Assembly (NCBI GenBank): GCA_963675665.1
Contig: OY776510.1
Span: forward strand, 4,896,001 to 4,960,000
Length of the DNA stretch: 64,000 nt
Source: Spirochaetia bacterium
Lineage (GTDB): Bacteria > Spirochaetota > Spirochaetia > UBA9216
Direction: 5' to 3'
Shown: in pieces, positions 4,222 through 56,084 of the stretch
How positions within the stretch are numbered: position 1 is the first letter of the stretch
Layout of the letters: every line of letters starts with the position of its first letter
The notes under the pieces: model-generated
What the model was told of the DNA's origin: nothing
The model's database searches: none
The model's input: the letters and a program-made list of their open reading frames with translations, nothing else
Translations under genes and position numbers: made by a program

Positions 4222-4289
4222 TTTCCCTCCAATAGATTTAAAAAAATAATATTCCCCGCTTATTAGATGGTTTATTCCGATCTATTTTC

Positions 4290-5333
4290 TTAATTTGATT
4301 CAAACCAGTTGTATGCTGTGCCGGTAGTTTTTCTTACAATAAGCTCTACATCAAGCTCATTGCTTAATGAAACCTTGTTGCTGTTTATTATATTTACCAG
4401 AATCGATACTCCGGTCTGCCCTTTTTTAAGGGTAGACTGATTAATTGTTGTAAGCGGAGGGTTCATTACCTTCGCCATTGGGATATCATCAAAACCCACA
4501 ACCGAAATATCTTCGGGAATCTTTAATCCCATCTCCTGTATTGCATTCATTACACCGAAAGCCATAAAGTCTCCCGCCACAAAAAACGCGGTAGGCTTGA
4601 CGGTTTTTACCAGTTTTTTGGTTATTAAATAACCGCTGTCTATATTGTTGGCGCCCTCGGTTATCAAAGACTGATCTATCCTGATACCGTTTTTCTTTAA
4701 CGCATCCATATAGCCCCTCAGCCTGTCTGCACTGCTGGACAGTATATCAGGACCGTTTATAAAACATATTTTCTTATGCCCAAGATCAATAAGATGTTCC
4801 GTTGCAATAAGCGCCCCTTTATAGTTATCTACACATACATGCGGGACATTAGTTACGCCGGGCATCCTTGAAGTCAGGACATACGGAATACCGGTTTCCT
4901 CTATTTTATCTATGATATCCCTGTGATTAAGCCCAGGACTTATAACAAGAAGCCCGTCTACCCTGTTCTGATAAATTACATCCAGATAATTATCTGAACG
5001 GCAATACAGAAGCAGAATGTAATATCCAAGCGTATCAGCTTCCTTGAATATTCCCCGGATGATCTCCTCATAAAAAGGGTTCATAAACACATAATCAATA
5101 TCATGTGGAATAAAAACACCGATTGTATTATTTTTCCTGATGGACATTCCTTTAGCCATGGCGCTCGGCTGATAATTGTATTTCTTTACAGTTTCAAGAA
5201 TCCTTTCCCTGGTCTCAGGAAGAATCTCTCCCTTATTATTCAACGCTCTTGATACTGTTGTTTTAGAAACCCCCAACTCATTCGCAATATCAGCAATAGT
5301 ATATTTTTTCTTTTTCTTAGGATAATGCTCCAT
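4290..5333 (-). CDS. LacI-family transcriptional regulator (copy 1)
   Basis: [24 protein letters not shown]; [12 protein letters not shown] and PPLTTI C-terminal motifs. Confidence 0.95.
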
Positions 5334-13145: not shown

Positions 13146-13269
13146 GAAAAACCTCCATAAAACTTGTTTTGTTTTAATTTCTTCTCTATTTATCAGAAAT
13201 AGAGCTTTTGATGTAATTTAATGCGGTATTCCTCAATTTTATACGATCGTAATAATTGAAACATACGTT

Positions 13270-13343
13270 GTAACCGGTTACGTAACCGGTTACGTAACCG
13301 GTTACGTTGAAATTACTTTAAACCACAAAAATTCAGTTGTCAA
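13270..13343 (-). promoter_or_regulatory. Sigma70-like promoter with triple tandem LacI-type operator
   Basis: Minus strand TTGACA-17 bp-TAAAGT (-35 at 13338-13343), followed by (GTAACCGGTTAC)x3 at 13270-13305. Confidence 0.8.
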
Positions 13344-13500
13344 GTTTTTTTTATAATATTTTGTAATATTTTAGTTCCATGTTAATTTTTGGTCATCCAA
13401 CAATTATAAAACCGACAGAGCTGTGAAGTGGGATCGTTCATATTAGCACTTTCTCCAACTCCTCTCTGTAGTCAGTCTCCTAAAAGTTAACCACAGACGC

Positions 13501-15751: not shown

Positions 15752-15777
15752 AAAATTAGTTCTCCATTAAATCTAAA

Positions 15778-16806
15778 TTAGTCAGAAACCTTACCGGTAG
15801 TTTTTCTGACAACAAGCTCAACATCAAGCTCAGTACTTAACGAATCCTTATTGCCGTTTATTATCTCAACCAGCCTGGAAACTCCAGTCCTTCCTTTTTT
15901 AAGGGTAGACTGATTAATTGTTGTAAGCGGAGGGTTCATTACCTTCGCCATTGGGATATCATCAAAACCCACAACCGAAATATCTTCGGGAATCTTTAAT
16001 CCCATCTCCTGTATTGCATTCATTACACCGAAAGCCATAAAGTCTCCCGCCACAAAAAACGCGGTAGGCTTGACGGTTTTTACCAGTTTTTTGGTTATTA
16101 AATAACCGCTGTCTATATTGTTGGCGCCCTCGGTTATCAAAGACTGATCTATCCTGATACCGTTTTTCTTTAACGCATCCATATAGCCCCTCAGCCTGTC
16201 TGCACTGCTGGACAGTATATCAGGACCGTTTATAAAACATATTTTCTTATGCCCAAGATCAATAAGATGTTCCGTTGCAATAAGCGCCCCTTTATAGTTA
16301 TCTACACATACATGCGGGACATTAGTTACGCCGGGCATCCTTGAAGTCAGGACATACGGAATACCGGTTTCCTCTATTTTATCTATGATATCCCTGTGAT
16401 TAAGCCCAGGACTTATAACAAGAAGCCCGTCTACCCTGTTCTGATAAATTACATCCAGATAATTATCTGAACGGCAATACAGAAGCAAAATGTAATATCC
16501 AAGCGTATCAGCTTCCTTGAATATTCCCCGGATGATCTCCTCATAAAAAGGGTTCATAAACACATAATCAATATCATGTGGAATAAAAACACCGATTGTA
16601 TTATTTTTCCTGATGGACATTCCTTTAGCCATGGCGCTCGGCTGATAATTGTATTTCTTTACAGTTTCAAGAATCCTTTCCCTGGTTTCAGGAAGAATAT
16701 CACTCTTATTATTCAACGCTCTTGATACTGTTGTTTTAGAAACTCCCAGCTCATTCGCAATATCAGCTATTGTGTATTTCTTCCTGTTTTTTGGCTGATA
16801 AACCAT
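15778..16806 (-). CDS. LacI-family transcriptional regulator (copy 2, near-identical to 4290-5333)
   Basis: Same HTH and effector domain as copy 1. Confidence 0.95.
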
Positions 16807-22497: not shown

Positions 22498-22568
22498 GTT
22501 GTTTCACGTAACCGGTTACGGTACCGGTTACGTGAAACAACTCTAAACCACAAAATACCAGTTGTCAA
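22498..22568 (-). promoter_or_regulatory. Sigma70-like promoter with double LacI-type operator, paralogous to 13270-13343
   Basis: TTGACA-17 bp-TAGAGT (-35 at 22563-22568); GTAACCGGTTAC + GGTACCGGTTAC inside a 19-bp-arm palindrome at 22498-22541. Confidence 0.8.
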
Positions 22569-22663
22569 GTTTTTTCTAACAGATTAATTGTAAAAGATTG
22601 TTTTTATATTAAATTCTGGTCGTCTTCTTTTTTTGAGCTGATCCTGAGGTGAATCTTCGATAT

Positions 22664-29238: not shown

Positions 29239-29288
29239 TATTTACTCCTGAAAATTTATTCTCACCGTAAACGGCAATAATACTATCC

Positions 29289-29379
29289 CCGCCATGGAAG
29301 GCGGATAAGCTTGATGAAGTTTGGAGAACTTATCTCCAAACTTCAGAAACGGTTTAAACATGGATGTTTAAACCGTTTC
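29289..29379 (-). repeat. Structured intergenic element E1 (three hairpins)
   Basis: GAAACGGTTTAAAC-ATCCAT-GTTTAAACCGTTTC, T, GAAGTTTGGAGA-TAAGT-TCTCCAAACTTC, CCGCC-TTCCAT-GGCGG. The first arm contains the thiolase stop codon. Confidence 0.8.
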
Positions 29380-30549
29380 CACACAAAGAGCTACACCCAT
29401 ACCGCCGCCGATACACAGGGTAGCAAGACCTTTTTTAAGGCCGCGTTTTTTCATCTCATACAGCAGGGTAACGAGAATTCTTGCTCCGCTGGCCCCAATC
29501 GGATGGCCTATTGATATAGCGCCTCCGTTTACGTTTATCTTGCTCGCGTCCCATCCGAGTTCCCTGTTTACCGAGAGAGACTGCGCGGCGAAGGCTTCGT
29601 TTGCCTCAATCAGCTCGAGATCATCAATACTCCAGCCGGCCTTGGCCAGCGCGTTTCTGACGGCTTCTACCGGTCCGATACCCATTATCGCGGGATCTAC
29701 ACCTGCCCAGCCGTAACCTGCAATCCTGGCCATCGGTTTAAGGCCTTTTTCCTTAACCGCGTCTTCACCGGCAACAAGCAGGATCGCAGCTCCGTCGTTG
29801 ATGCCTGAAGCGTTGCCCGCAGTTACTGTTCCGTCTTTCTTGAAAGCGGGACGAAGCTTTGCAAGACTTTCGGCTGTTACGCCCGCGCGGGGGAATTCAT
29901 CAGTGTCGAATACGATCGGATCGCCCTTTCTCTGGGGAATCTCGAACGGCATAATTTCGTCTTTGAATTTTCCATCCCTGATAGCCGCCTCTGTCTTGTT
30001 CTGTGAACCGGCGGCAAATGCGTCCTGTTCTTCACGGCTGATATTATATTTTTCAGCAAGATTTTCCGCTGTAATTCCCATGTGATAGTCGTTGTACTTT
30101 TCCCAAAGACCGTCGTAAACCATTGCGTCAACAATTTTACCGTCGCCCATTCTGTACCCGTTCCTGGCCTTGGGAAGCAGATAAGGTGCTATAGACATAT
30201 TCTCGGTCCCGCCTGCGACTACGATGTCGGCATCTTCGCACTTGATTGCCTGCGCAGCGGCGGCAACGGTCCTGAGTCCGGATCCGCAAACCATATTGAC
30301 TGTCTGTGCGGTTTTCTCCTGCGGAATGTCCGAATAGATCAGAGCCTGTCTTGCGCAGTTCTGTCCCTGTCCGGCCTGAAGCACGTTGCCCAGGATTACT
30401 TCGTCAACATCTGCTCCTTCAAGATTATTCCTTTTCAGGACCTCTTTTATTACCGGTGCGGCAATCTTTGCCGCCTGGATTTCGGATAGAGTTCCCCCGA
30501 AATTCCCAACTGCTGTTCTCAACGCATCTACAATGTAAACTTCTTTCAT
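29368..30549 (-). CDS. thlA: Acetyl-CoA C-acetyltransferase (thiolase)
   Basis: [28 protein letters not shown]. Confidence 0.93.
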
Positions 30550-31354: not shown

Positions 31355-32638
31355 TTATTTAAGGCTTTTCCGGAGCTCATCGCGAAAATCAGGATGAGCA
31401 ATATTTATCAATGCTTCAGCACGCTCCCTGTTGCTTTTGCCCTTTAAATGCGCTATTCCGTATTCGGTTACGATATAATCAACGTCATGACGCGAAGTCG
31501 TTACGCATGCGCCTTCATTCAGACGAATTACAATTCGGGATATTGTTCCGTTTTTACCTGTCGACGGAAAAGCAATTATCGATTTGCCGCCTTCCGAATG
31601 CATTGCCGAACGAACAAAATCAACCTGTCCGCCTACAGCCGAAAACTGTTTCGGACCAATCATATCGGCAGCAACCTGGCCAAAAAGATCAACCTCAATT
31701 GCGGAGTTTATCGATATAAGGTTTTTCAGTCTGCCTGCAACCAGAACGCTGTTTGTATAATCAACCGGTTTCATCAGTACGGCAGGGTTATCATTTACAA
31801 AATCATAAAGCCTTTTTGTTCCCATCAGAAAGGTTGCTACGAATTTACCGGGATTAATATTGTTGTATTTATTGGTTACAATACCTTTTTCATAAAGATC
31901 CACAACCCCGTCGCTGAACATTTCGGTATGGATTCCCAAATCCTTCTTCTCTGTAAGGAAATGCAGAACCGCATCGGGAATCGCACCGATTCCGAGTTGA
32001 AGGGTCGCCCTGTCGGGGATAAGTCCTGCAATATGACTGCCGATTTTTTCTTCAATCTCGCCGATTTTCGGAAGCGGGATTTCGATCGGATCGTAATTGG
32101 TTTCTACTATATAATCTACTTCCGACACATGGATAAATGAACCATGTGTACGCGGCATTTTCGGGTTCACCTCTGCTACTACAACCCTTGCTTTTTCAGC
32201 GGCCTGCATTGTGTAATCCACCGATATCCCGTAACTCATAAAACCATGCTCATCCGGAGGCGAAACCATTATGAACGCTACATCCGAATCAATAGAACCG
32301 TCGCGGATACGTCCCGGAAGTTCGGAAAAGAAGCACGGAATAAAATCTCCCCGCCCTTCATTGATCGACCCCCTGGTTGGGCCTCCCGCAAATATTGTTG
32401 TATGTTTGAATGTTCCTTCCCATTCCGGCCCGCAATACCAGCAGTCGTGAAGCGGAACCATATGGAAGACTCTGACGTCTTTAAGTTTATCCGCGTGATT
32501 TTTTAATTCATTTGTAAGCTCAACCGGCACTCCGGCGCAGTGACCGAGGACAATCTGGTCTCCGGATCTTACGCTTTTTTCAACAGCCGTCTTGAGATCT
32601 GTTTTCTTGTTGTTGTACAGAATCTTCCAGTCTGCCAT
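31355..32638 (-). CDS. abfT: 4-hydroxybutyrate CoA-transferase (acetyl-CoA hydrolase/transferase family)
   Basis: TLQLGIGAIP, GIHTEMFSDG, GGQVDF, VTEYGIA; context. Confidence 0.85.
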   Translation of the reverse strand: MADWKILYNNKKTDLKTAVEKSVRSGDQIVLGHCAGVPVELTNELKNHADKLKDVRVFHMVPLHDCWYCGPEWEGTFKHTTIFAGGPTRGSINEGRGDFIPCFFSELPGRIRDGSIDSDVAFIMVSPPDEHGFMSYGISVDYTMQAAEKARVVVAEVNPKMPRTHGSFIHVSEVDYIVETNYDPIEIPLPKIGEIEEKIGSHIAGLIPDRATLQLGIGAIPDAVLHFLTEKKDLGIHTEMFSDGVVDLYEKGIVTNKYNNINPGKFVATFLMGTKRLYDFVNDNPAVLMKPVDYTNSVLVAGRLKNLISINSAIEVDLFGQVAADMIGPKQFSAVGGQVDFVRSAMHSEGGKSIIAFPSTGKNGTISRIVIRLNEGACVTTSRHDVDYIVTEYGIAHLKGKSNRERAEALINIAHPDFRDELRKSLK

Positions 32639-32700
32639 ATCTAACTCCTATAAAAAGTCAACCACAAGCTAAAAATATAAGCTTATGATCTAGTCGGATA

Positions 32701-33813
32701 TCAACCGACCATTACAGCTTCCCATGCTGCTGCCTGCATTTCCCTGTATTCTTTTCTAAAAGCCATTTTCATCGGATCAAACGGCTCTCTGGTTTTTAAA
32801 ATTGTATATACCAAAGTGCTCATCTTGCGGGCGGCAGCTATTACACTCTTACCCGAGCCTTTCTGCTTCTTCATCGCTGCATACTTCGTCATTATTCGGT
32901 ACGTCCCGGTCTTCTTTTGCATACGAACCATTCCCATCACCATCTGTACGAAGGCTGTCCTCAGTTCTACAGGCCCACGCTTTGTTATATGTCCATGATG
33001 TATTGTCATATTTGAGTTCTGCACCCATGGCACAAGCCCGGCGTTTGCTGCATATTTCTTCGCACTATCATATCTGCCGATATCGTCTGTATAGGCTCTT
33101 ACTGTTGCTGCTGTTATTAGACCCACGCCTGGTATTGTCTGCAGAAGCTCAACATCTTCATCGTCCTCCACAAGCTCAGCCAAAACCTTTTCAAGCTGCT
33201 TGACTTGCGATGCCTGATTATCTATCATATCCAGTAACGGTATTACCGTTTTGGCAGCGCTTCCGTAAAAGTCGTGGTCCTCGAGACCGTTCAGGATTCG
33301 CTGCCTTTCTTTTTTACTCTGCAGCTGTCCGCGTTTGGTCTCTATTCCATAACCAAGTAATAAGCCATGCACCTGGTTCTTTAACGACACAACAGATTTT
33401 ACCAGTATCGACCTGGATTTCAGCACCCTTCGAATATCCTCACTCTCTTGGGAACATAATATCGATTCAGGCAGCATGTCTTTCTCAAGAAACTCCGCCA
33501 GGGTGCGTGCATCATGTTTGTCTGTCTTTTTTACAGATTCATTCACTACCTTGAATTTCAAAGTATTCACTACAACCACTTCGACTCCAGCCTTTAACAG
33601 TTTATTGCGGAAATAACGGGCATTCCCGGTTGTTTCCACCGCTGCTCTCAACTCATATTCCTCTTCACAATATTCATCCAGCATTTTCAGAAATGCTCCA
33701 TAACCATTTCCGCTGGTCGGATACATTCCCAATTGATCAATTTTTCGGTCTTCACTTAAAAGGCATACTGTAAACTGCGTTTTGTGAAGATCCACGCCAA
33801 TACTCATCTTCAT
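32701..33813 (-). CDS. IS110-family DEDD recombinase/transposase
   Basis: IGVDLHK, VETTG, KKTDKHDA, TIPGVG, AGLVP...S. Confidence 0.95.
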   Translation of the reverse strand: MKMSIGVDLHKTQFTVCLLSEDRKIDQLGMYPTSGNGYGAFLKMLDEYCEEEYELRAAVETTGNARYFRNKLLKAGVEVVVVNTLKFKVVNESVKKTDKHDARTLAEFLEKDMLPESILCSQESEDIRRVLKSRSILVKSVVSLKNQVHGLLLGYGIETKRGQLQSKKERQRILNGLEDHDFYGSAAKTVIPLLDMIDNQASQVKQLEKVLAELVEDDEDVELLQTIPGVGLITAATVRAYTDDIGRYDSAKKYAANAGLVPWVQNSNMTIHHGHITKRGPVELRTAFVQMVMGMVRMQKKTGTYRIMTKYAAMKKQKGSGKSVIAAARKMSTLVYTILKTREPFDPMKMAFRKEYREMQAAAWEAVMVG

Positions 33814-33848
33814 GTTCTATCTCCAATAGTTTGAAGCAGTGCCTATAC

Positions 33849-34001
33849 GGTGAATTGTTCCATTCTCCTATCCGGTCTCGCAGACCATTGAATGTTTCGG
33901 TTACGGCTCTTCAATCTCCTAAACGGTCTCGCGGACCAGTAAAAATGTCGAACAGTAACCTTACTGCCTCAATTAAAGTTAAGGCAGTATATCAATTCAC
34001 C
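33849..34001 (-). ncRNA. Putative bridge/seek RNA of IS110 copy 1
   Basis: Reverse complement of 54723-54875; see copy 2. Confidence 0.7.
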
Positions 34002-34026
34002 AGCTCATGAAGACTTTTTATCATTC

Positions 34027-34167
34027 CTCCTATAAAAAGTTTCCGCATGGATGCGGGTTTTAAGAGGTGAAGTAGTAAATCTAAACTGCGTAGCAGTTTA
34101 AACTGCATTGCAGTTTAGATTTACTACTTCAAAATGATAAAATAACATGGAAGTTATTTTATCATTC
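34027..34167 (-). mobile_element. Structured element E2, putative non-autonomous IS110-end MITE in tandem with the IS
   Basis: Preceded by TATAGGAG. Starts GAATGATAAAA (same as the IS left end) and ends ACTTTTTATAGGAG (same as the IS right end). Has a 14-bp hairpin with TTCCAT loop, a 21-bp GAAG..CTTC hairpin and CCGC-ATCCAT-GCGG. Confidence 0.78.
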
Positions 34168-34226
34168 CTCCTATAAGATTTTTTGCCAAAATTCTGAAAT
34201 ACAGCTTCCAGGGCAGTTTATTAACA

Positions 34227-34255
34227 GATCAAGCTGCGTAAAAAGCAGCTTGATC
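34227..34255 (-). terminator. Stem-loop after abfD
   Basis: GATCAAGCTGC...GCAGCTTGATC 11-bp inverted repeat, weak U tract. Confidence 0.5.
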
Positions 34256-34268
34256 ATTCCGTTTATTT

Positions 34269-35732
34269 TCAATCCTTTATGCCGGCGAGATCTTTTGCAT
34301 ACTGTTTCTTTCGCTGAACATCTGCCTGACGCGAGATCATTATACGCTGGGCCTGGGGCGAGCCGGCACCGTGCATTGATTCGGTGAGATAGCCTACAGC
34401 AGCTCTTCCCATTGTCAGGTTTTCAATAAGACGAAGAAGTTTAAGCCTGTCTTTTGTTTCGACGCCCTCAACTCCGCCGAGAAATTTTTTGACCATTTCA
34501 GCAGTTTCCGGATTAGCAAGGTCTTTTGCATTCGGGGCCGTTACCATCAGACCGCCTGCAATATCCTGAAGAAGACGCGCAATCTCATAAGGGAAACGGG
34601 TAACGTTCTGCTTGCAGACATTGGCCAGCAGCAAATCGATCAGATAGTTTCCGGATTTGGTCTTCTGACCGAGCCAGCAGCATGCTACTGAACTTGACCA
34701 TATTGTTTCATTGAGATGGTTCATTTCAACAATCTTGTCTTTAACATGTGAAGCTCTTGCACAGCCGTTGTATTCCGCAATCAGCTGCGCAGCGCCGATA
34801 GCAACATCGCCTACGCCTGTTTTACATGCATAACTCGAGCGATGATAGCCGGCAAATCTTTCAACCAGCATATTTGTAAAATCATATTCGCCGTCCATGA
34901 AGATCTTTTCATTCGGAACAAAAACCCTGTCGAAAACCATCAGGGCTTCCTGTCCTCCGAAGTTGGGACTTCCGGCATCCATGTTCTCTCCATCCGGATC
35001 TTCAAGAAGTCTTGTATCACAGGACTGGCGGCCGTAAATATAAGTAATCCCTGGGTCGTCAGATTCAACAACACAGCAGACTGCGAAGTCTTTATCCTCT
35101 TCGGTCATTGTAACTGTAGGCATAATCAGGGCCTGGTGCGAGTTGATACAGCCAGTCTGATGGGTCTTGGCGCCGCTTATTACAATACCGTCGTCGCGTC
35201 TTTCAACAACATGCACATATACATCGGGGTCAGGACACTGATGAGGCCTTTTGCTTCGGTCGCCCTTCGGATCTGTCATACAACCGTCTACAACAAGATC
35301 CTTTTCTTCCACCTCAAGCATGTATTTCTTGAATCTTTCATGATAGTCTGTTCCGTATTTCTCATCCATTTCATAAGTTGTAGAGAAAGTTGCATTGAAC
35401 GCATCCATACCTACACAGCGCTGAAAACATGTGCCGCATTTCTGGCCGAGAAGTCTCTGCATCCCTACTTTCTTGTACAGCTCCTCAGGACTCTGGTGAA
35501 TATGACAAAACCTGTTTATTCTTTTGCCTGTGAATGAAGATATTTCGGTCAGATCATCTCTGTATTTTGAACCTTCCTCTGCAAGCTCATAAGTAAGTGC
35601 AATCGAATTGATAGAAGCTGCAATGATCGGGTGATCATACGGATTCTCAAGTTTTTCGCCGGCCATATATACATTCAATGGTCTTCTGTTTCTCAGGCTT
35701 GCGCGGTATTCCTTACCGGTCATCAATCCCAT
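34269..35732 (-). CDS. abfD: 4-hydroxybutyryl-CoA dehydratase / vinylacetyl-CoA isomerase
   Basis: CGTCFQRCVGMD Fe-S motif, MTDPKGDRS, GAKTHQTG, YHRSSYAC, ESMHGAGSPQAQ; start at MGLMTG behind GGGAGG. Confidence 0.93.
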   Translation of the reverse strand: MGLMTGKEYRASLRNRRPLNVYMAGEKLENPYDHPIIAASINSIALTYELAEEGSKYRDDLTEISSFTGKRINRFCHIHQSPEELYKKVGMQRLLGQKCGTCFQRCVGMDAFNATFSTTYEMDEKYGTDYHERFKKYMLEVEEKDLVVDGCMTDPKGDRSKRPHQCPDPDVYVHVVERRDDGIVISGAKTHQTGCINSHQALIMPTVTMTEEDKDFAVCCVVESDDPGITYIYGRQSCDTRLLEDPDGENMDAGSPNFGGQEALMVFDRVFVPNEKIFMDGEYDFTNMLVERFAGYHRSSYACKTGVGDVAIGAAQLIAEYNGCARASHVKDKIVEMNHLNETIWSSSVACCWLGQKTKSGNYLIDLLLANVCKQNVTRFPYEIARLLQDIAGGLMVTAPNAKDLANPETAEMVKKFLGGVEGVETKDRLKLLRLIENLTMGRAAVGYLTESMHGAGSPQAQRIMISRQADVQRKKQYAKDLAGIKD

Positions 35733-35799
35733 ATTTTTCCTCCCGGCGCCGTATTCCGGTGCCAATTACAATAATTTTTATATAAAGGGCATAATCCCC

Positions 35800-36459
35800 T
35801 TAATATTCTATTCTGACGGTCCTGATAGTGTGTTCATCAAGATCATAAAAATATGCAAGATGCCTGTTTATAAGAGCAATCACTCCGTCGGTGTCGCGTT
35901 CTTTTAGCTTGTCTATCATGTCAAAATGAAGTTTTATCATATTCAGACTCAAATCGGAGTCGACATAATAAACAAACTGCATCAGCCTGACTTTCAGATA
36001 AAGGTCTTCCATAATTTTACACAGGTTCTCGTTTTTTCCGATTATGGCCAGGCCTAAATGAAACTCGCATTCAAGACGAATCCAGTTGAAAATATCGCCG
36101 TCTTTGGCGGCCTGATAACAGGCGTCGGCAACTTTTCTCAATTCGTCGATTTCAGCATTGTTTCCGAAACGTACTGCAAGCTGGACGGCCAGGGTATCAA
36201 GGGCTATTCTTGTAAGCCCCAGGTCTGTCTTGGCTCTCCTGTCAAAAGTTACGACCTCCGCGCTGCGGTGAGGATAAAGTTTAACTATCCCCTCTTTGGC
36301 CAGGCGCTGAACAGCTTCGGTTACAGGCGTACGGCTGACGCCGAGTTTTTTTGACAGGGCGTCAACTGCCAGTTTATCCCCGCAGGCAATATCCTGCCTT
36401 AAAATCATGTCCGTGATCTGTCTGTAAACTGTTTCTCCGAGCATCTGCCGATCTGCCAT
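35800..36459 (-). CDS. GntR-family (FCD) transcriptional regulator
   Basis: LGVSRTPVTEA wHTH; FH...N...H FCD domain. Confidence 0.9.
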   Translation of the reverse strand: MADRQMLGETVYRQITDMILRQDIACGDKLAVDALSKKLGVSRTPVTEAVQRLAKEGIVKLYPHRSAEVVTFDRRAKTDLGLTRIALDTLAVQLAVRFGNNAEIDELRKVADACYQAAKDGDIFNWIRLECEFHLGLAIIGKNENLCKIMEDLYLKVRLMQFVYYVDSDLSLNMIKLHFDMIDKLKERDTDGVIALINRHLAYFYDLDEHTIRTVRIEY

Positions 36460-36472
36460 GAAATTTCACACC

Positions 36473-36539
36473 TTTGCATGTATTTTTACAGATTGCATGC
36501 AATCTTATTACATATTATACGATCCTGCGTTTTTGTCAA
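36473..36539 (-). promoter_or_regulatory. Promoter and probable GntR operator
   Basis: Perfect 16-bp palindrome AGATTGCATGCAATCT (36490-36505) plus partial TTGCATGTA; TTGACA at 36534-36539 with TATAAT/TAATAT 14-16 bp downstream. Confidence 0.6.
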
Positions 36540-36540
36540 G

Positions 36541-36577
36541 AAAAAAGAGGGCTGATTAGTAAATCAGCCCTCTTTTT
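36541..36577 (-). terminator. Intrinsic terminator after gabT (bidirectional shape)
   Basis: AAAAAAGAGGGCTGATT-AGTA-AATCAGCCCTCTTTTT. Confidence 0.85.
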
Positions 36578-40388: not shown

Positions 40389-40508
40389 CTCCTATAGAAA
40401 CTCGACTTTAATCGTAAGCCATGGATGGCCGGTTGCAGAAGTGAAGTTTTCAAACAAAGTTTGGAAACTTCAAAATGTTAAAAATACATGGATGTATTTT
40501 TAACATTC
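40389..40508 (-). repeat. Structured element E3 with IS-like ends
   Basis: G-AATGTTAAAAATAC-ATCCAT-GTATTTTTAACATT-TT-GAAG..CTTC-AC...GCC-ATCCAT-GGC...GTCGAGTTTCTATAGGAG directly before the metH ATG. Confidence 0.8.
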
Positions 40509-41102: not shown

Positions 41103-41210
41103 TGTTTGAATATAACAATTTTATTAAAACTTGGCACTAGTCTTTCAGCCGTACTTGAATATTATCTGATTATCGTGTTAATTTCTGTATATTCAAGTGA
41201 CAAGACACTT

Positions 41211-41342
41211 AATGATGACAGGCGCGCTACACCTGTCATCATTTTGAAGTTTCTGGAGCTACGCACCAGAAACTTCACTCTGAGATTTCGGCGGATAAGC
41301 TGTTTTTCAGCATCCATCACACAAAAAATTTTTCGAGAGGAG
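41211..41342 (+). repeat. Structured element E5 (variant loops) in the symporter leader
   Basis: AATGATGACAGGCG-CGCTA-CACCTGTCATCATT-TT-GAAGTTTCTGG-AGCTACGCA-CCAGAAACTTC-AC, ending at the GAGGAG SD. Confidence 0.7.
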
Positions 41343-46088: not shown

Positions 46089-46293
46089 TTATTAATTCAA
46101 ATCCTTTCTCAGTAAGCCGATATTTCTGTGTCGGGCTATTCGGAGAATTCGGCTCGGTACGTTCTATAATACCTTCCTCCAAAGCCGGACGAATATAGTT
46201 TTTCTCAAAATTATCACGCCCTTTAAGATTCAACGCATCCATCATCTCTTTTCGAGACATATCGTTAACCATTAGAAGTCTAATCACTTGAGC

Positions 46294-46384
46294 TACTTGC
46301 CCTGTTACTTGCCCTGTTACTTGCCCTGTTACTTGTCCTGTTACTTGCCCTGTTACTTGTCCTGTTACTTGTCCTGACTTGTCC
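46294..46384. repeat. 12-bp tandem repeat (CCTGTTACTTGY, ~7 units, encodes TGQV)
   Basis: Visible directly; one unit is shortened to 10 bp. Confidence 0.9.
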
Positions 46385-46390
46385 CCCCGA

Positions 46391-46468
46391 GTCGGTACCG
46401 GGTCGGTACCGGGTCGGTACCGGGTCGATAACTGGGTCGGTATTGGGTCGGTACTGGATCGACTCCGG
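46391..46468. repeat. 11-bp tandem repeat (GTCGGTACCGG, 7 units, 3 perfect)
   Basis: Visible directly; one unit is 12 bp. Confidence 0.9.
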
Positions 46469-54619: not shown

Positions 54620-54697
54620 GAATTATGAAAAATCTTCCATGAGTTTTCATAATTAACTACACTGATCTGCCGCTTATGGCGGAATATATTATAGGAG
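54620..54697 (+). repeat. Structured element E4 (short form) immediately upstream of IS copy 2
   Basis: G-AATTATGAAAAATC-TTCCAT-GAGTTTTCATAATT ... CCGC-TTATG-GCGG ... TTATAGGAG; the start resembles the IS left end GAATGATAAAAAGTCTTCATGAG. Confidence 0.65.
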
Positions 54698-54722
54698 GAA
54701 TGATAAAAAGTCTTCATGAGCT

Positions 54723-54875
54723 GGTGAATTGATATACTGCCTTAACTTTAATTGAGGCAGTAAGGTTACTGTTCGACATTTTTACTGGTCCGCGAGACCG
54801 TTTAGGAGATTGAAGAGCCGTAACCGAAACATTCAATGGTCTGCGAGACCGGATAGGAGAATGGAACAATTCACC
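54723..54875 (+). ncRNA. Putative bridge/seek RNA
   Basis: GGTGAATTG/CAATTCACC closing stem, a 5' hairpin, and two repeated modules GGTC-YGCGA-GACC-..TAGGAG whose flanks match the target and donor junction sequences. Confidence 0.72.
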
Positions 54876-54910
54876 GTATAGGCACTGCTTCAAACTATTG
54901 GAGATAGAAC

Positions 54911-56023
54911 ATGAAGATGAGTATTGGCGTGGATCTTCACAAAACGCAGTTTACAGTATGCCTTTTAAGTGAAGACCGAAAAATTGATCAATTGGGAATG
55001 TATCCGACCAGCGGAAATGGTTATGGAGCATTTCTGAAAATGCTGGATGAATATTGTGAAGAGGAATATGAGTTGAGAGCAGCGGTGGAAACAACCGGGA
55101 ATGCCCGTTATTTCCGCAATAAACTGTTAAAGGCTGGAGTCGAAGTGGTTGTAGTGAATACTTTGAAATTCAAGGTAGTGAATGAATCTGTAAAAAAGAC
55201 AGACAAACATGATGCACGCACCCTGGCGGAGTTTCTTGAGAAAGACATGCTGCCTGAATCGATATTATGTTCCCAAGAGAGTGAGGATATTCGAAGGGTG
55301 CTGAAATCCAGGTCGATACTGGTAAAATCTGTTGTGTCGTTAAAGAACCAGGTGCATGGCTTATTACTTGGTTATGGAATAGAGACCAAACGCGGACAGC
55401 TGCAGAGTAAAAAAGAAAGGCAGCGAATCCTGAACGGTCTCGAGGACCACGACTTTTACGGAAGCGCTGCCAAAACGGTAATACCGTTACTGGATATGAT
55501 AGATAATCAGGCATCGCAAGTCAAGCAGCTTGAAAAGGTTTTGGCTGAGCTTGTGGAGGACGATGAAGATGTTGAGCTTCTGCAGACAATACCAGGCGTG
55601 GGTCTAATAACAGCAGCAACAGTAAGAGCCTATACAGACGATATCGGCAGATATGATAGTGCGAAGAAATATGCAGCAAACGCCGGGCTTGTGCCATGGG
55701 TGCAGAACTCAAATATGACAATACATCATGGACATATAACAAAGCGTGGGCCTGTAGAACTGAGGACAGCCTTCGTACAGATGGTGATGGGAATGGTTCG
55801 TATGCAAAAGAAGACCGGGACGTACCGAATAATGACGAAGTATGCAGCGATGAAGAAGCAGAAAGGCTCGGGTAAGAGTGTAATAGCTGCCGCCCGCAAG
55901 ATGAGCACTTTGGTATATACAATTTTAAAAACCAGAGAGCCGTTTGATCCGATGAAAATGGCTTTTAGAAAAGAATACAGGGAAATGCAGGCAGCAGCAT
56001 GGGAAGCTGTAATGGTCGGTTGA
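54911..56023 (+). CDS. IS110-family DEDD recombinase/transposase
   Basis: Protein identical to 32701-33813. Confidence 0.95.
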   Translation: MKMSIGVDLHKTQFTVCLLSEDRKIDQLGMYPTSGNGYGAFLKMLDEYCEEEYELRAAVETTGNARYFRNKLLKAGVEVVVVNTLKFKVVNESVKKTDKHDARTLAEFLEKDMLPESILCSQESEDIRRVLKSRSILVKSVVSLKNQVHGLLLGYGIETKRGQLQSKKERQRILNGLEDHDFYGSAAKTVIPLLDMIDNQASQVKQLEKVLAELVEDDEDVELLQTIPGVGLITAATVRAYTDDIGRYDSAKKYAANAGLVPWVQNSNMTIHHGHITKRGPVELRTAFVQMVMGMVRMQKKTGTYRIMTKYAAMKKQKGSGKSVIAAARKMSTLVYTILKTREPFDPMKMAFRKEYREMQAAAWEAVMVG

Positions 56024-56084
56024 TATCCGACTAGATCATAAGCTTATATTTTTAGCTTGTGGTTGACTTTTTATAGGAGCAAAA

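Follow-up and report, generated by a model that had tools for sequence, protein, structure and literature searches.

Small repeats at translation starts of a spirochaete genome, probably non-autonomous elements derived from an IS110-family insertion sequence

The closest described counterpart of the repeats considered here is MITEPpu9, the companion of the IS110-family insertion sequence (IS) ISPpu9 in Pseudomonas putida KT2440, and the only IS110-linked element resembling a MITE (miniature inverted-repeat transposable element) that we found in the literature. MITEPpu9 occurs both beside its IS and alone, is present in 8 copies, carries the small RNA gene ssr9, goes to repetitive extragenic palindromic (REP) sites, has been reported to give minicircles and duplications, and is proposed to move with transposase acting in trans (PMC12288879). 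In work on other IS110 elements, a 22-bp donor was active with bridge RNA provided in trans (PMC11208160); a mini-IS whose ends were intact moved when transposase and the non-coding region acted in trans (PMC11187229); LT-RD and LD-RT on either side of a mini-cargo allowed it to transpose, with tandem cargo repeats in 3 of 96 colonies (10.1101/2025.10.25.684509); and excision required no more than the donor arms (10.64898/2026.08.31.748434). These experiments make it mechanistically plausible that small units bearing donor ends are mobilised in trans. Here we describe such a candidate, E2, in a 64,000-nt stretch of a Spirochaetia bacterium genome (contig OY776510.1, positions 4,896,001 to 4,960,000; hereafter the window, to which coordinates refer unless a genome position is named). 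E2 is a 141-nt unit on the minus strand, between abfD and abfT, directly upstream of a 1382-bp IS110-family element. We think it likely that E2 belongs to a lineage-specific family of 80-160-nt non-autonomous, MITE-like elements derived from an IS of this kind; ~50 genes here have a ribosome-binding site that a family member provides. Unlike MITEPpu9, the family has ~80 copies in the genome, extends across the genus and related genera, has three hairpins, occupies Shine-Dalgarno-ATG sites and itself supplies the Shine-Dalgarno sequence.

Along the minus strand, the abfD stop codon is followed by a 101-nt stretch ending AATCTTATAGGAG, then by E2 (34027..34167), the IS (32645..34026) and the TTAGAT-ATG that forms the spacer and start codon of abfT directly after the IS right end (32636..32644). 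E2 reads GAATGATAAAATAAC...GCGGAAACTTTTTATAGGAG and the neighbouring IS reads GAATGATAAAAAGTCTTCATGAG...GTTGACTTTTTATAGGAG, then TTAGATATG. As an earlier note on this DNA had claimed, the first 11 nt of E2 are identical with the IS left end and its last 14 nt with the IS right end, and the unit contains no open reading frame (ORF) of at least 50 amino acids (aa). The note's description of a unit bracketed by one target sequence also holds: TTATAGGAG, the left copy of a Shine-Dalgarno-type target, lies directly upstream (34168..34176, included in the span 34027-34176 that the note gave for the unit), and the same letters end both E2 and the IS. E2 is predicted to fold into three hairpins (minimum free energy -70.9 kcal/mol, z -14.8) and scores 108.9 bits with R1, a covariance model built from 22 units: H1 is GAATGATAAAA..TCCATG..TTTTATCATT, H2 is long, and H3 is CCGCATCCATGCGG followed by AAACTTTTTATAGGAG, this last hairpin and its T run being flagged as terminator-like. 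The word TATAGGAG is commoner than chance would have it: the window holds 9 copies where 1.53 would be expected, and none of 100 shuffles reached 9. Directly upstream of E2, the last 92 nt of the 101-nt stretch (34168..34259, minus strand; GAATGATCAAGC...TCTTATAGGAG) probably represent an old, degenerate family member, E1, which R1 matches weakly (22.6 bits, E 0.007).

The surrounding genes on the minus strand (31355-36459) are co-directional and comprise a GntR/FCD regulator, a 4-hydroxybutyryl-CoA dehydratase-like gene with HpaB_N/HpaB domains, and an abfT-like CoA-transferase gene. The gap between abfD and abfT is 3-15 nt in six related species, one of which (G003) reads AGGAG-TTATAG-ATG; judged from this spacing, the 1.6-kb insert here must alter abfT expression. 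An Rfam scan of 32500-34400 found no curated family near its gathering score (best, SQ1002, 24.9 bits against a threshold of 128), and we dismissed the sub-threshold matches as chance; E2 thus corresponds to no curated riboswitch, leader or sRNA model.

The junction without E2 and the IS, which the earlier note had put together on paper, exists as a natural allele. A 3793-nt contig from run X13, which carries a different organism label and belongs to a different study, joins position 32644 directly to 34168 and so skips 1523 nt, corresponding to the IS (1382) and E2 (141) together. The nine letters TTATAGGAG fit both sides of the joint, a single TTATAGGAG is left before TTAGAT-ATG, and E1 is retained. 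The flanks differ from the window at 2 of 345 and 6 of 333 positions, so that the contig comes from a near-identical strain and constitutes a precise empty allele. Contigs from runs X9, X11 and X12 are short and broken at repeats and thus uninformative on E2 without the IS and on circles; the share of sampled words was below 0.15 in runs X1-X8 and 0.97 in X10, and the contig comparison covered X9 and X11-X13. Two weak joints, 34037/34126 and 34052/34126 (side 20-30), are probably due to other family members.

The IS beside E2 carries a 370-aa transposase/recombinase gene (32701..33813, minus strand) with DEDD_Tnp_IS110 and Transposase_20 domains (PF01548, 64.9 bits; PF02371, 64.3 bits; both over their cut-offs), placing the protein among the DEDD recombinases. 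It is one of 15 copies in the genome of this DNA (G000; 5.15 Mb, one contig), all 99.9-100% identical across 1382 bp; a second copy lies within the window (54698..56079, plus strand). AGGAG directly precedes all 15 copies, usually with T-rich sequence before it, and an ATG follows 5-7 nt downstream in 15/15 (6 nt in 12), the IS being co-directional with the gene. The eight bases 5′ of the IS are TATAGGAG in nine copies, TTTAGGAG in three and other sequences in three; the general form of the target is T(A/T)TAGGAG-N5-7-ATG. The preference is strong, because TAT precedes AGGAG at only 37 of the 801 unoccupied AGGAG-N4-8-ATG-ORF sites in the genome. Insertion is sequence-specific and in a single orientation, with neither terminal inverted repeats of the classical kind nor a long duplication of the target, and the right end of the IS, TTGACTTTTTATAGGAG, restores a Shine-Dalgarno sequence with unchanged spacing to the start codon. 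Across the putative circle junction, the right end offers TTGACT and the left end TGATAAAAA 17 nt downstream, possible halves of a promoter that such a junction would rebuild.

This site rule bears on the suggestion, made in the earlier note beside its main proposal, that the repeats may be the preferred landing sites of the IS, as REPs are for IS621. In a strict form, for which REPs and ISPpu9 offer a further parallel, the units would be targets only and share no descent with the IS. Six of the 15 copies do lie directly after the 3′ hairpin of a unit, and both copies in the window do so, as the note had observed: the second follows E4 (54620..54697, plus strand), a short member with H1 and H3 and no H2 (42.6 bits with R1). 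The other nine copies adjoin no unit, and the target is the Shine-Dalgarno-ATG site itself. Unit ends carry an ideal version of that site, making up 13 of the 37 free TATAGGAG start sites, which accounts for the association of the six copies with units. Related ISs in genomes that lack the family strike ordinary Shine-Dalgarno sites, and a target-only model does not predict a unit 5′ end identical with the IS left end. The part of the suggestion that stands is therefore that units offer good targets; as an account of what the units are, it is largely refuted, and we regard it as very improbable.

A transposase scan of species-representative genomes found multi-copy relatives of the IS in an Oceanispirochaeta metagenome-assembled genome (MAG; 79% aa identity, 10 loci), a Syntrophales MAG (74%, 9 loci) and Marispirochaeta associata (56%, 12 loci). 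All three have ends GAATGATAAAAA...TTGACTTTTTATAGGAG with AGGAG directly 5′, and an ATG lies within 5-9 nt on the 3′ side of every copy examined save one from Syntrophales. Comparison of these sequences thus identifies the termini as an old feature of the IS lineage, present across phyla. Since the ends are old and widespread on the IS, it would be the repeat family that copied the IS and not the reverse.

The genome also holds a second, different IS110-type transposase in 7-8 copies (PF01548, ~53 bits), with 387-aa frames at G000:C1 554677, 2047176, 2622140, 2819500, 3726090, 4982440 and 5031394 and a 346-aa frame at 4457488; one of these lies ~230 nt from the IS copy at 2622808.

The 200-nt left end of the IS (33814..34013, minus strand) is non-coding and predicted to form a bridge-type RNA (fold z -4.5 against shuffles). 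It contains a pair of similar modules, in each of which NNNAGGAG comes after a small hairpin. In an alignment of 10 related left ends, the NNNAGGAG segment of the first module varies between lineages and, in four of them, tracks the consensus of the left target: UUUAGGAG accompanies TATAGGAG / TTTAGGAG in G000, UACAGGAG accompanies TACAGGAG in Oceanispirochaeta, CAAAGGAG accompanies AAAGGAG in Syntrophales and UUAAGGAG accompanies TAAGGAG in Marispirochaeta. The published rule is that the left guide, which pairs with the bottom strand, has the letters of the top strand (PMC11208160). Given that relation, the co-varying segment (GUUUAGGAGAU, 33914..33924, minus strand, in the same sense as T(A/T)TAGGAG) can be taken as the putative left target guide. 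On the 5′ side of the loop-1 hairpin, a segment (..ACAUUUUUAC..) is antisense to the A-rich spacer and ATG, with CAU kept in 10/10 left ends. It is a candidate right target guide (GACAUUUUUACU, 33938..33949, minus strand), weaker than the left one, and the right-flank consensus, AaAAAAATG here, fits it loosely. The second module, GAUAGGAGAAUGG, is conserved; its AUAGGAG corresponds to the ATAGGAG of the IS right end, and the CAUUC lying 5′ of it is antisense to the GAATG of the left end. These loop-2 segments match termini common to the units and the IS. GGAUAGGAGAAUGG (33860..33873, minus strand), conserved in 10/10 aligned left ends, is the presumptive left donor guide, matching the right-end terminus ATAGGAG shared by the IS and E2.

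These features resemble those of IS621 (PMC11208160) and the seekRNA elements (PMC11187229): a DEDD recombinase, a left-end RNA with two loops, one segment that changes with the left target and another that matches the element's own termini, and, in the published systems, short donor arms that suffice in trans. There are also differences. The target here is the translation start region and not a REP, and the left target resembles the left donor (both ..TAGGAG), which turns each insertion's left junction into an almost perfect donor. The sense (left) guide of IS621 stands on the 5′ side of each loop, whereas the sense NNNAGGAG segments here stand 3′ of the small hairpins, and the loop layout may accordingly differ. 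Among other members of the family, IS900/IS901/IS902-type elements of mycobacteria reportedly target translation initiation signals (Doran et al. 1997 is said to have described this), and the orientation of IS900-type elements is said to let the host ribosome-binding site drive hed. The likeness lies in an IS110 element placed between ribosome-binding site and start codon; the element here differs in being co-directional with the downstream gene and in replacing its Shine-Dalgarno sequence. In PMC8141618, hed is described as an ORF without a ribosome-binding site of its own. We found no statement on the IS900 target in PMC4607514, and in PMC8141618 only a hint of one.

To define the family we combined BLAST, a nucleotide HMM and R1, which place 76-83 members in G000 (76 nhmmer hits; 83 covariance-model hits). 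Within the window, besides E2 and E4, these include E3 (40389..40508, minus strand; 83.5 bits), which supplies the Shine-Dalgarno sequence of a downstream 812-aa ORF, a member at 29272..29380 (minus strand; 55.4 bits) and a diverged one at 41210..41342 (plus strand; 42 bits). The IS-like ends that the note had quoted for E3 and E4 are present. An R1 match at 36453-36577 (21 bits) proved to be a terminator hairpin and a TTGACA-17-TATAAT promoter before the GntR-type gene and was discarded. We likewise rejected as coding a mini-ORF at the AGGAGGAATGATAAAA start of units, where an ATG lies 2 nt after GGAG, since its length is not conserved.

The shared architecture is an H1 of the form GAATGATAAAA-nnnn-TCCATG-nnnn-TTTTATCATT, an H2 of TTGAAGTTTG...CAAACTTCA with a variable middle, and an H3 of CCnGC..TCCATG..GCnGG followed by AAnTTTTTATAGGAG. 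These hairpins are maintained by compensatory change: 96.2% of cells are paired compared with 82.1% in shuffles, none of 500 shuffles reached the observed values, and changes on both sides occur in 16 of 29 pairs (slid controls, 41-47%). In the subfamily of E2, H2 is enlarged by a short internal repeat (AAACTGCAACGCAGTTT-like; 34074-34127 in the window) whose number varies between copies; the copy at G000 738787-738945 has one more than E2.

Both ends and flanks of the units carry the signature of the IS. GGAG directly precedes 25 of the 42 units with a complete 5′ end (random expectation 0.3%), and 21 of the 42 start with GAATG. Of 65 units with a complete 3′ end, 56 finish in AGGAG and 26 in ATAGGAG; what follows is a start codon within 2-12 nt and an ORF of at least 60 codons in 49, another unit or an IS in 15, and neither in one. 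Some units match the IS left end still further than E2 (22 of 23 nt at G000 2291903). Moreover, TTCCATG in the H1 loop and CCATGG in H3 lie at the same distances from the unit ends as the subterminal inverted motifs TTCATGAG / CTC(C)ATGAA from those of the IS, from which we conclude on positional grounds that the homology takes in ~24 nt of the left end (GAATGATAAAA..TTCCATG) and ~28 nt of the right end (CCATGG..TTTTTATAGGAG). E2 and its family thus combine small, non-coding, dispersed copies, IS termini and the target-site signature of the IS with presence/absence polymorphism at precise boundaries, the latter seen in X13, where E2 and the IS are missing together, and at two units of the congener G004 whose G000 sites are empty.

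The same comparison argues against each unit being an independent remnant of a full IS that lost its interior in place. Such a deletion may have a trace in runs X9 and X11, where a weak joint, 32664/33994, skips 1329 nt within the IS, with six other letters between (TAAACA, plus strand). Its depth is about half that of the single-copy flanks in both runs and its shorter side is only 21 letters; it would correspond to a ~59-nt IS derivative (33 nt of left end and 20 of right end), a sequence absent from the G000 assembly. The units, for their part, have the second half of H1, H2 and H3 in common, an internal architecture that the IS lacks, and so go back to one ancestral unit, not to a series of independent deletions. 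The independent-remnant explanation is contradicted, and we give it next to no credence.

As abundant extragenic palindromes that are sometimes tandem and show compensatory changes, the units also recall REP sequences in their bacterial interspersed mosaic element (BIME) and REPIN forms. Those repeats are tied to RAYT (Y1) transposases and are often targets of IS110 elements; the repeats here differ in carrying the ends of the IS itself. Tandem arrays comprise five units at G000:C1:1652333-1652891 and three at 2973058-2973366. Within an array, adjacent units show 94-99% identity, well above that of any unlinked pair, and the units of the five-unit array begin with GATTTATGATAAAA and not GAATGATAAAA.

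Searched with R1, G000 and 10 related genomes contain between 0 and 83 units each. The 83 of G000 are followed, within the genus, by 69 in G005, 46 in G004, 20 in G002, 19 in G001 and 14 in G003, and, among other members of the bacterial family, by 9 in G006, 5 in G008, 3 in G010, 1 in G009 and none in G007; the repeat family is thus present in 9 of the 10 relatives (1-69 units each). Relatives of the IS have also visited this bacterial family, as indicated by a truncated left end in G005 (nt 1-98, 88% identical, after TTTAGGAG) and, in G009, by IS ends that lie where contigs stop, preceded by TTAAGGAG and followed by N5-6 ATG.

We next consider whether the units are chiefly a module kept by the host, in 5′ untranslated and intercistronic regions, made up of three hairpins, a terminator-like H3 and a Shine-Dalgarno sequence, perhaps once mobile and now immobile. 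E2 would then shape abfT expression, and the IS would adjoin it only because the unit tail is a perfect target. The compensatory changes described above favour such a module, as do the 49 of 65 units that supply the Shine-Dalgarno sequence of a real-looking gene, the terminator-like H3 with its T run, and the occurrence of units in genomes without a detected transposase. Conservation in place points the same way. We examined 21 units in G004, and for ~8 of them the gene downstream has a clear orthologue in G000; the corresponding G000 site carries a whole or partial unit in 5-6 of these cases and is empty in two. Three aligned orthologous units share only 62-67% identity, which is the divergence of family pairs taken at random, yet they still fold. 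A host module leaves unexplained, on the other hand, why unit ends coincide with those of an IS lineage that also occurs in other phyla, and also the GGAG bracketing, the tandem arrays and the precise empty allele; moreover, no Rfam family matches. As the whole explanation we consider it unlikely. It is, in any case, compatible with an IS origin as a later stage (exaptation) and so is not a true alternative to it.

Together, these observations suggest a model for how the family could have formed and spread. The left-end bridge-type RNA of the IS lineage would direct insertion between a Shine-Dalgarno sequence (..T(A/T)TAGGAG) and the ATG, and the right end TTGACTTTTTATAGGAG would equip the gene downstream with a new Shine-Dalgarno sequence whose spacing is unchanged. 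Of the IS, the units retain only the two termini, which are the parts that the donor guides of the RNA are predicted to read. Recombinase and RNA from an IS copy would act in trans, so that a unit is copied or excised as a circle whose junction, ACTTTTTATAGGAG joined to GAATGATAAAA, would equal the junction of the IS itself over 25 nt; the circle would then be pasted into another Shine-Dalgarno-ATG site. The layers at abfT fit successive insertions, and we infer the order E1 (degenerate), E2 (intact) and IS, each into the target regenerated beside the ATG. The family is best explained as having arisen in an ancestor of this bacterial family and spread into Shine-Dalgarno-ATG sites by the same RNA-guided route as the IS, and the IS lineage that moved it probably formed a wave that preceded the present 15 copies.

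Several observations weigh against this origin, or against parts of it. Unlinked full-length units in G000 are at most 91.7% identical (median 66%; 764 pairs, 40 units) and the best relative of E2 is 89.5% identical, compared with 99.9-100% among the IS copies. In two preprints, IS110 elements show copy-and-paste behaviour (10.64898/2026.08.31.748434; 10.1101/2025.10.25.684509), so a recent jump of a unit should leave a near-identical source copy, and none was found. For this reason the X13 allele, which lacks E2 and the IS together and thus does not display E2 moving alone, may reflect precise loss of both and not the ancestral state. Had the recombinase caused such a loss, it would have used the left junction of E2, which is identical to that of the IS over 20 nt. 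The repeat family and the IS also differ in distribution. This transposase was found in 0 of the ten relatives, nine of which carry units, at an E value of 1e-20 or better, and the PF01548 domain in only two, G004 (1) and G009 (2), compared with 15 and 8 of the second IS110 type in G000; fragmented assemblies among the relatives can lose IS copies, those of G003 (50 contigs), G008 (10) and G010 (4) being good. R1 detected no unit in five other IS-bearing genomes (G041-G045); its positive control is the bacterial family, where 10 of the 11 genomes searched, counting G000, gave units. The 15-nt junction motif GGAGGAATGATAAAA is, in other IS-bearing genomes, about as frequent as the IS (9 exact matches for 9 IS loci in the Syntrophales MAG; 34 in G000). 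The pairings of the right-side guides are short, 5-8 nt. One orthologous unit has lost the left-end sequence GAATGATAAAA and retains a perfect H1, which, with the hairpins kept at the other orthologous sites, suggests a structural constraint other than transposition, possibly host use. Finally, the units have no classical MITE terminal inverted repeats: the ends of E2 are not inverted copies of one another, as expected for IS110, and only the subterminal TTCCATG / CCATGG motifs are inverted, for which reason we use the term MITE-like.

The earlier note's proposal that the repeats are spread in trans by this or a related recombinase is therefore upheld in part. The IS termini, the (A)GGAG-bracketed site shared with the IS and the precise empty allele speak for an IS110-type route; the identity values and the presence of units in congeners where no IS110 transposase was found speak against mobilisation by this very recombinase. 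More tentatively, and with less confidence than we place in the IS origin itself, we raise the possibility that an IS110 lineage that reads the Shine-Dalgarno sequence and start codon provided passengers that a spirochaete genus took over as translation-start cassettes. These, with their hairpins, terminator-like stem and Shine-Dalgarno sequence, would head ~50 genes per genome and be kept folded by selection at orthologous sites. The left junction of a unit is a near-perfect donor and its right junction a target, so an incoming IS could excise, tandem-duplicate or reshuffle such cassettes together with operon junctions, that of abfD-abfT being one.

There is little documentation of natural non-autonomous partners for bridge recombinases. 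A high-copy family reduced to the donor arms would reveal the natural cis requirements of the enzyme, with ~80 natural donor variants to compare. The IS lineage itself would represent RNA-guided insertion into translation starts with repair of the displaced Shine-Dalgarno sequence, which bears on how harm to the host is avoided and on off-target rules for bridge editors with similar target and donor arms. For annotation, ~1% of the genes of this organism take their ribosome-binding site from a repeat. Our literature search, which did not extend to preprint supplements that might hold target catalogues, found no published description of this repeat family and no account of a bridge-RNA element that reads the Shine-Dalgarno sequence together with the start codon; one preprint (10.64898/2026.08.14.744561) makes no mention of MITE, non-autonomous, ribosome or Shine.

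The window contains other repeats. Two adjacent tandem arrays lie at 46282-46453, ~9 copies of the 12-nt TACTTGCCCTGT followed by ~4-5 copies of the 11-nt CCGGGTCGGTA. A 300-nt direct repeat with 88% identity (4287-4586 and 15760-16059, 11.5 kb apart), with more shared sequence at 5119/16592 and 5254/16727, may reflect duplication of a gene block. Lastly, at 13268-13360 and 22506-22585 a palindromic, tandem intergenic motif, ACGTAACCGGTTACGT, precedes a 53-nt conserved stretch, and the two are possibly an operator and promoter region common to both loci.

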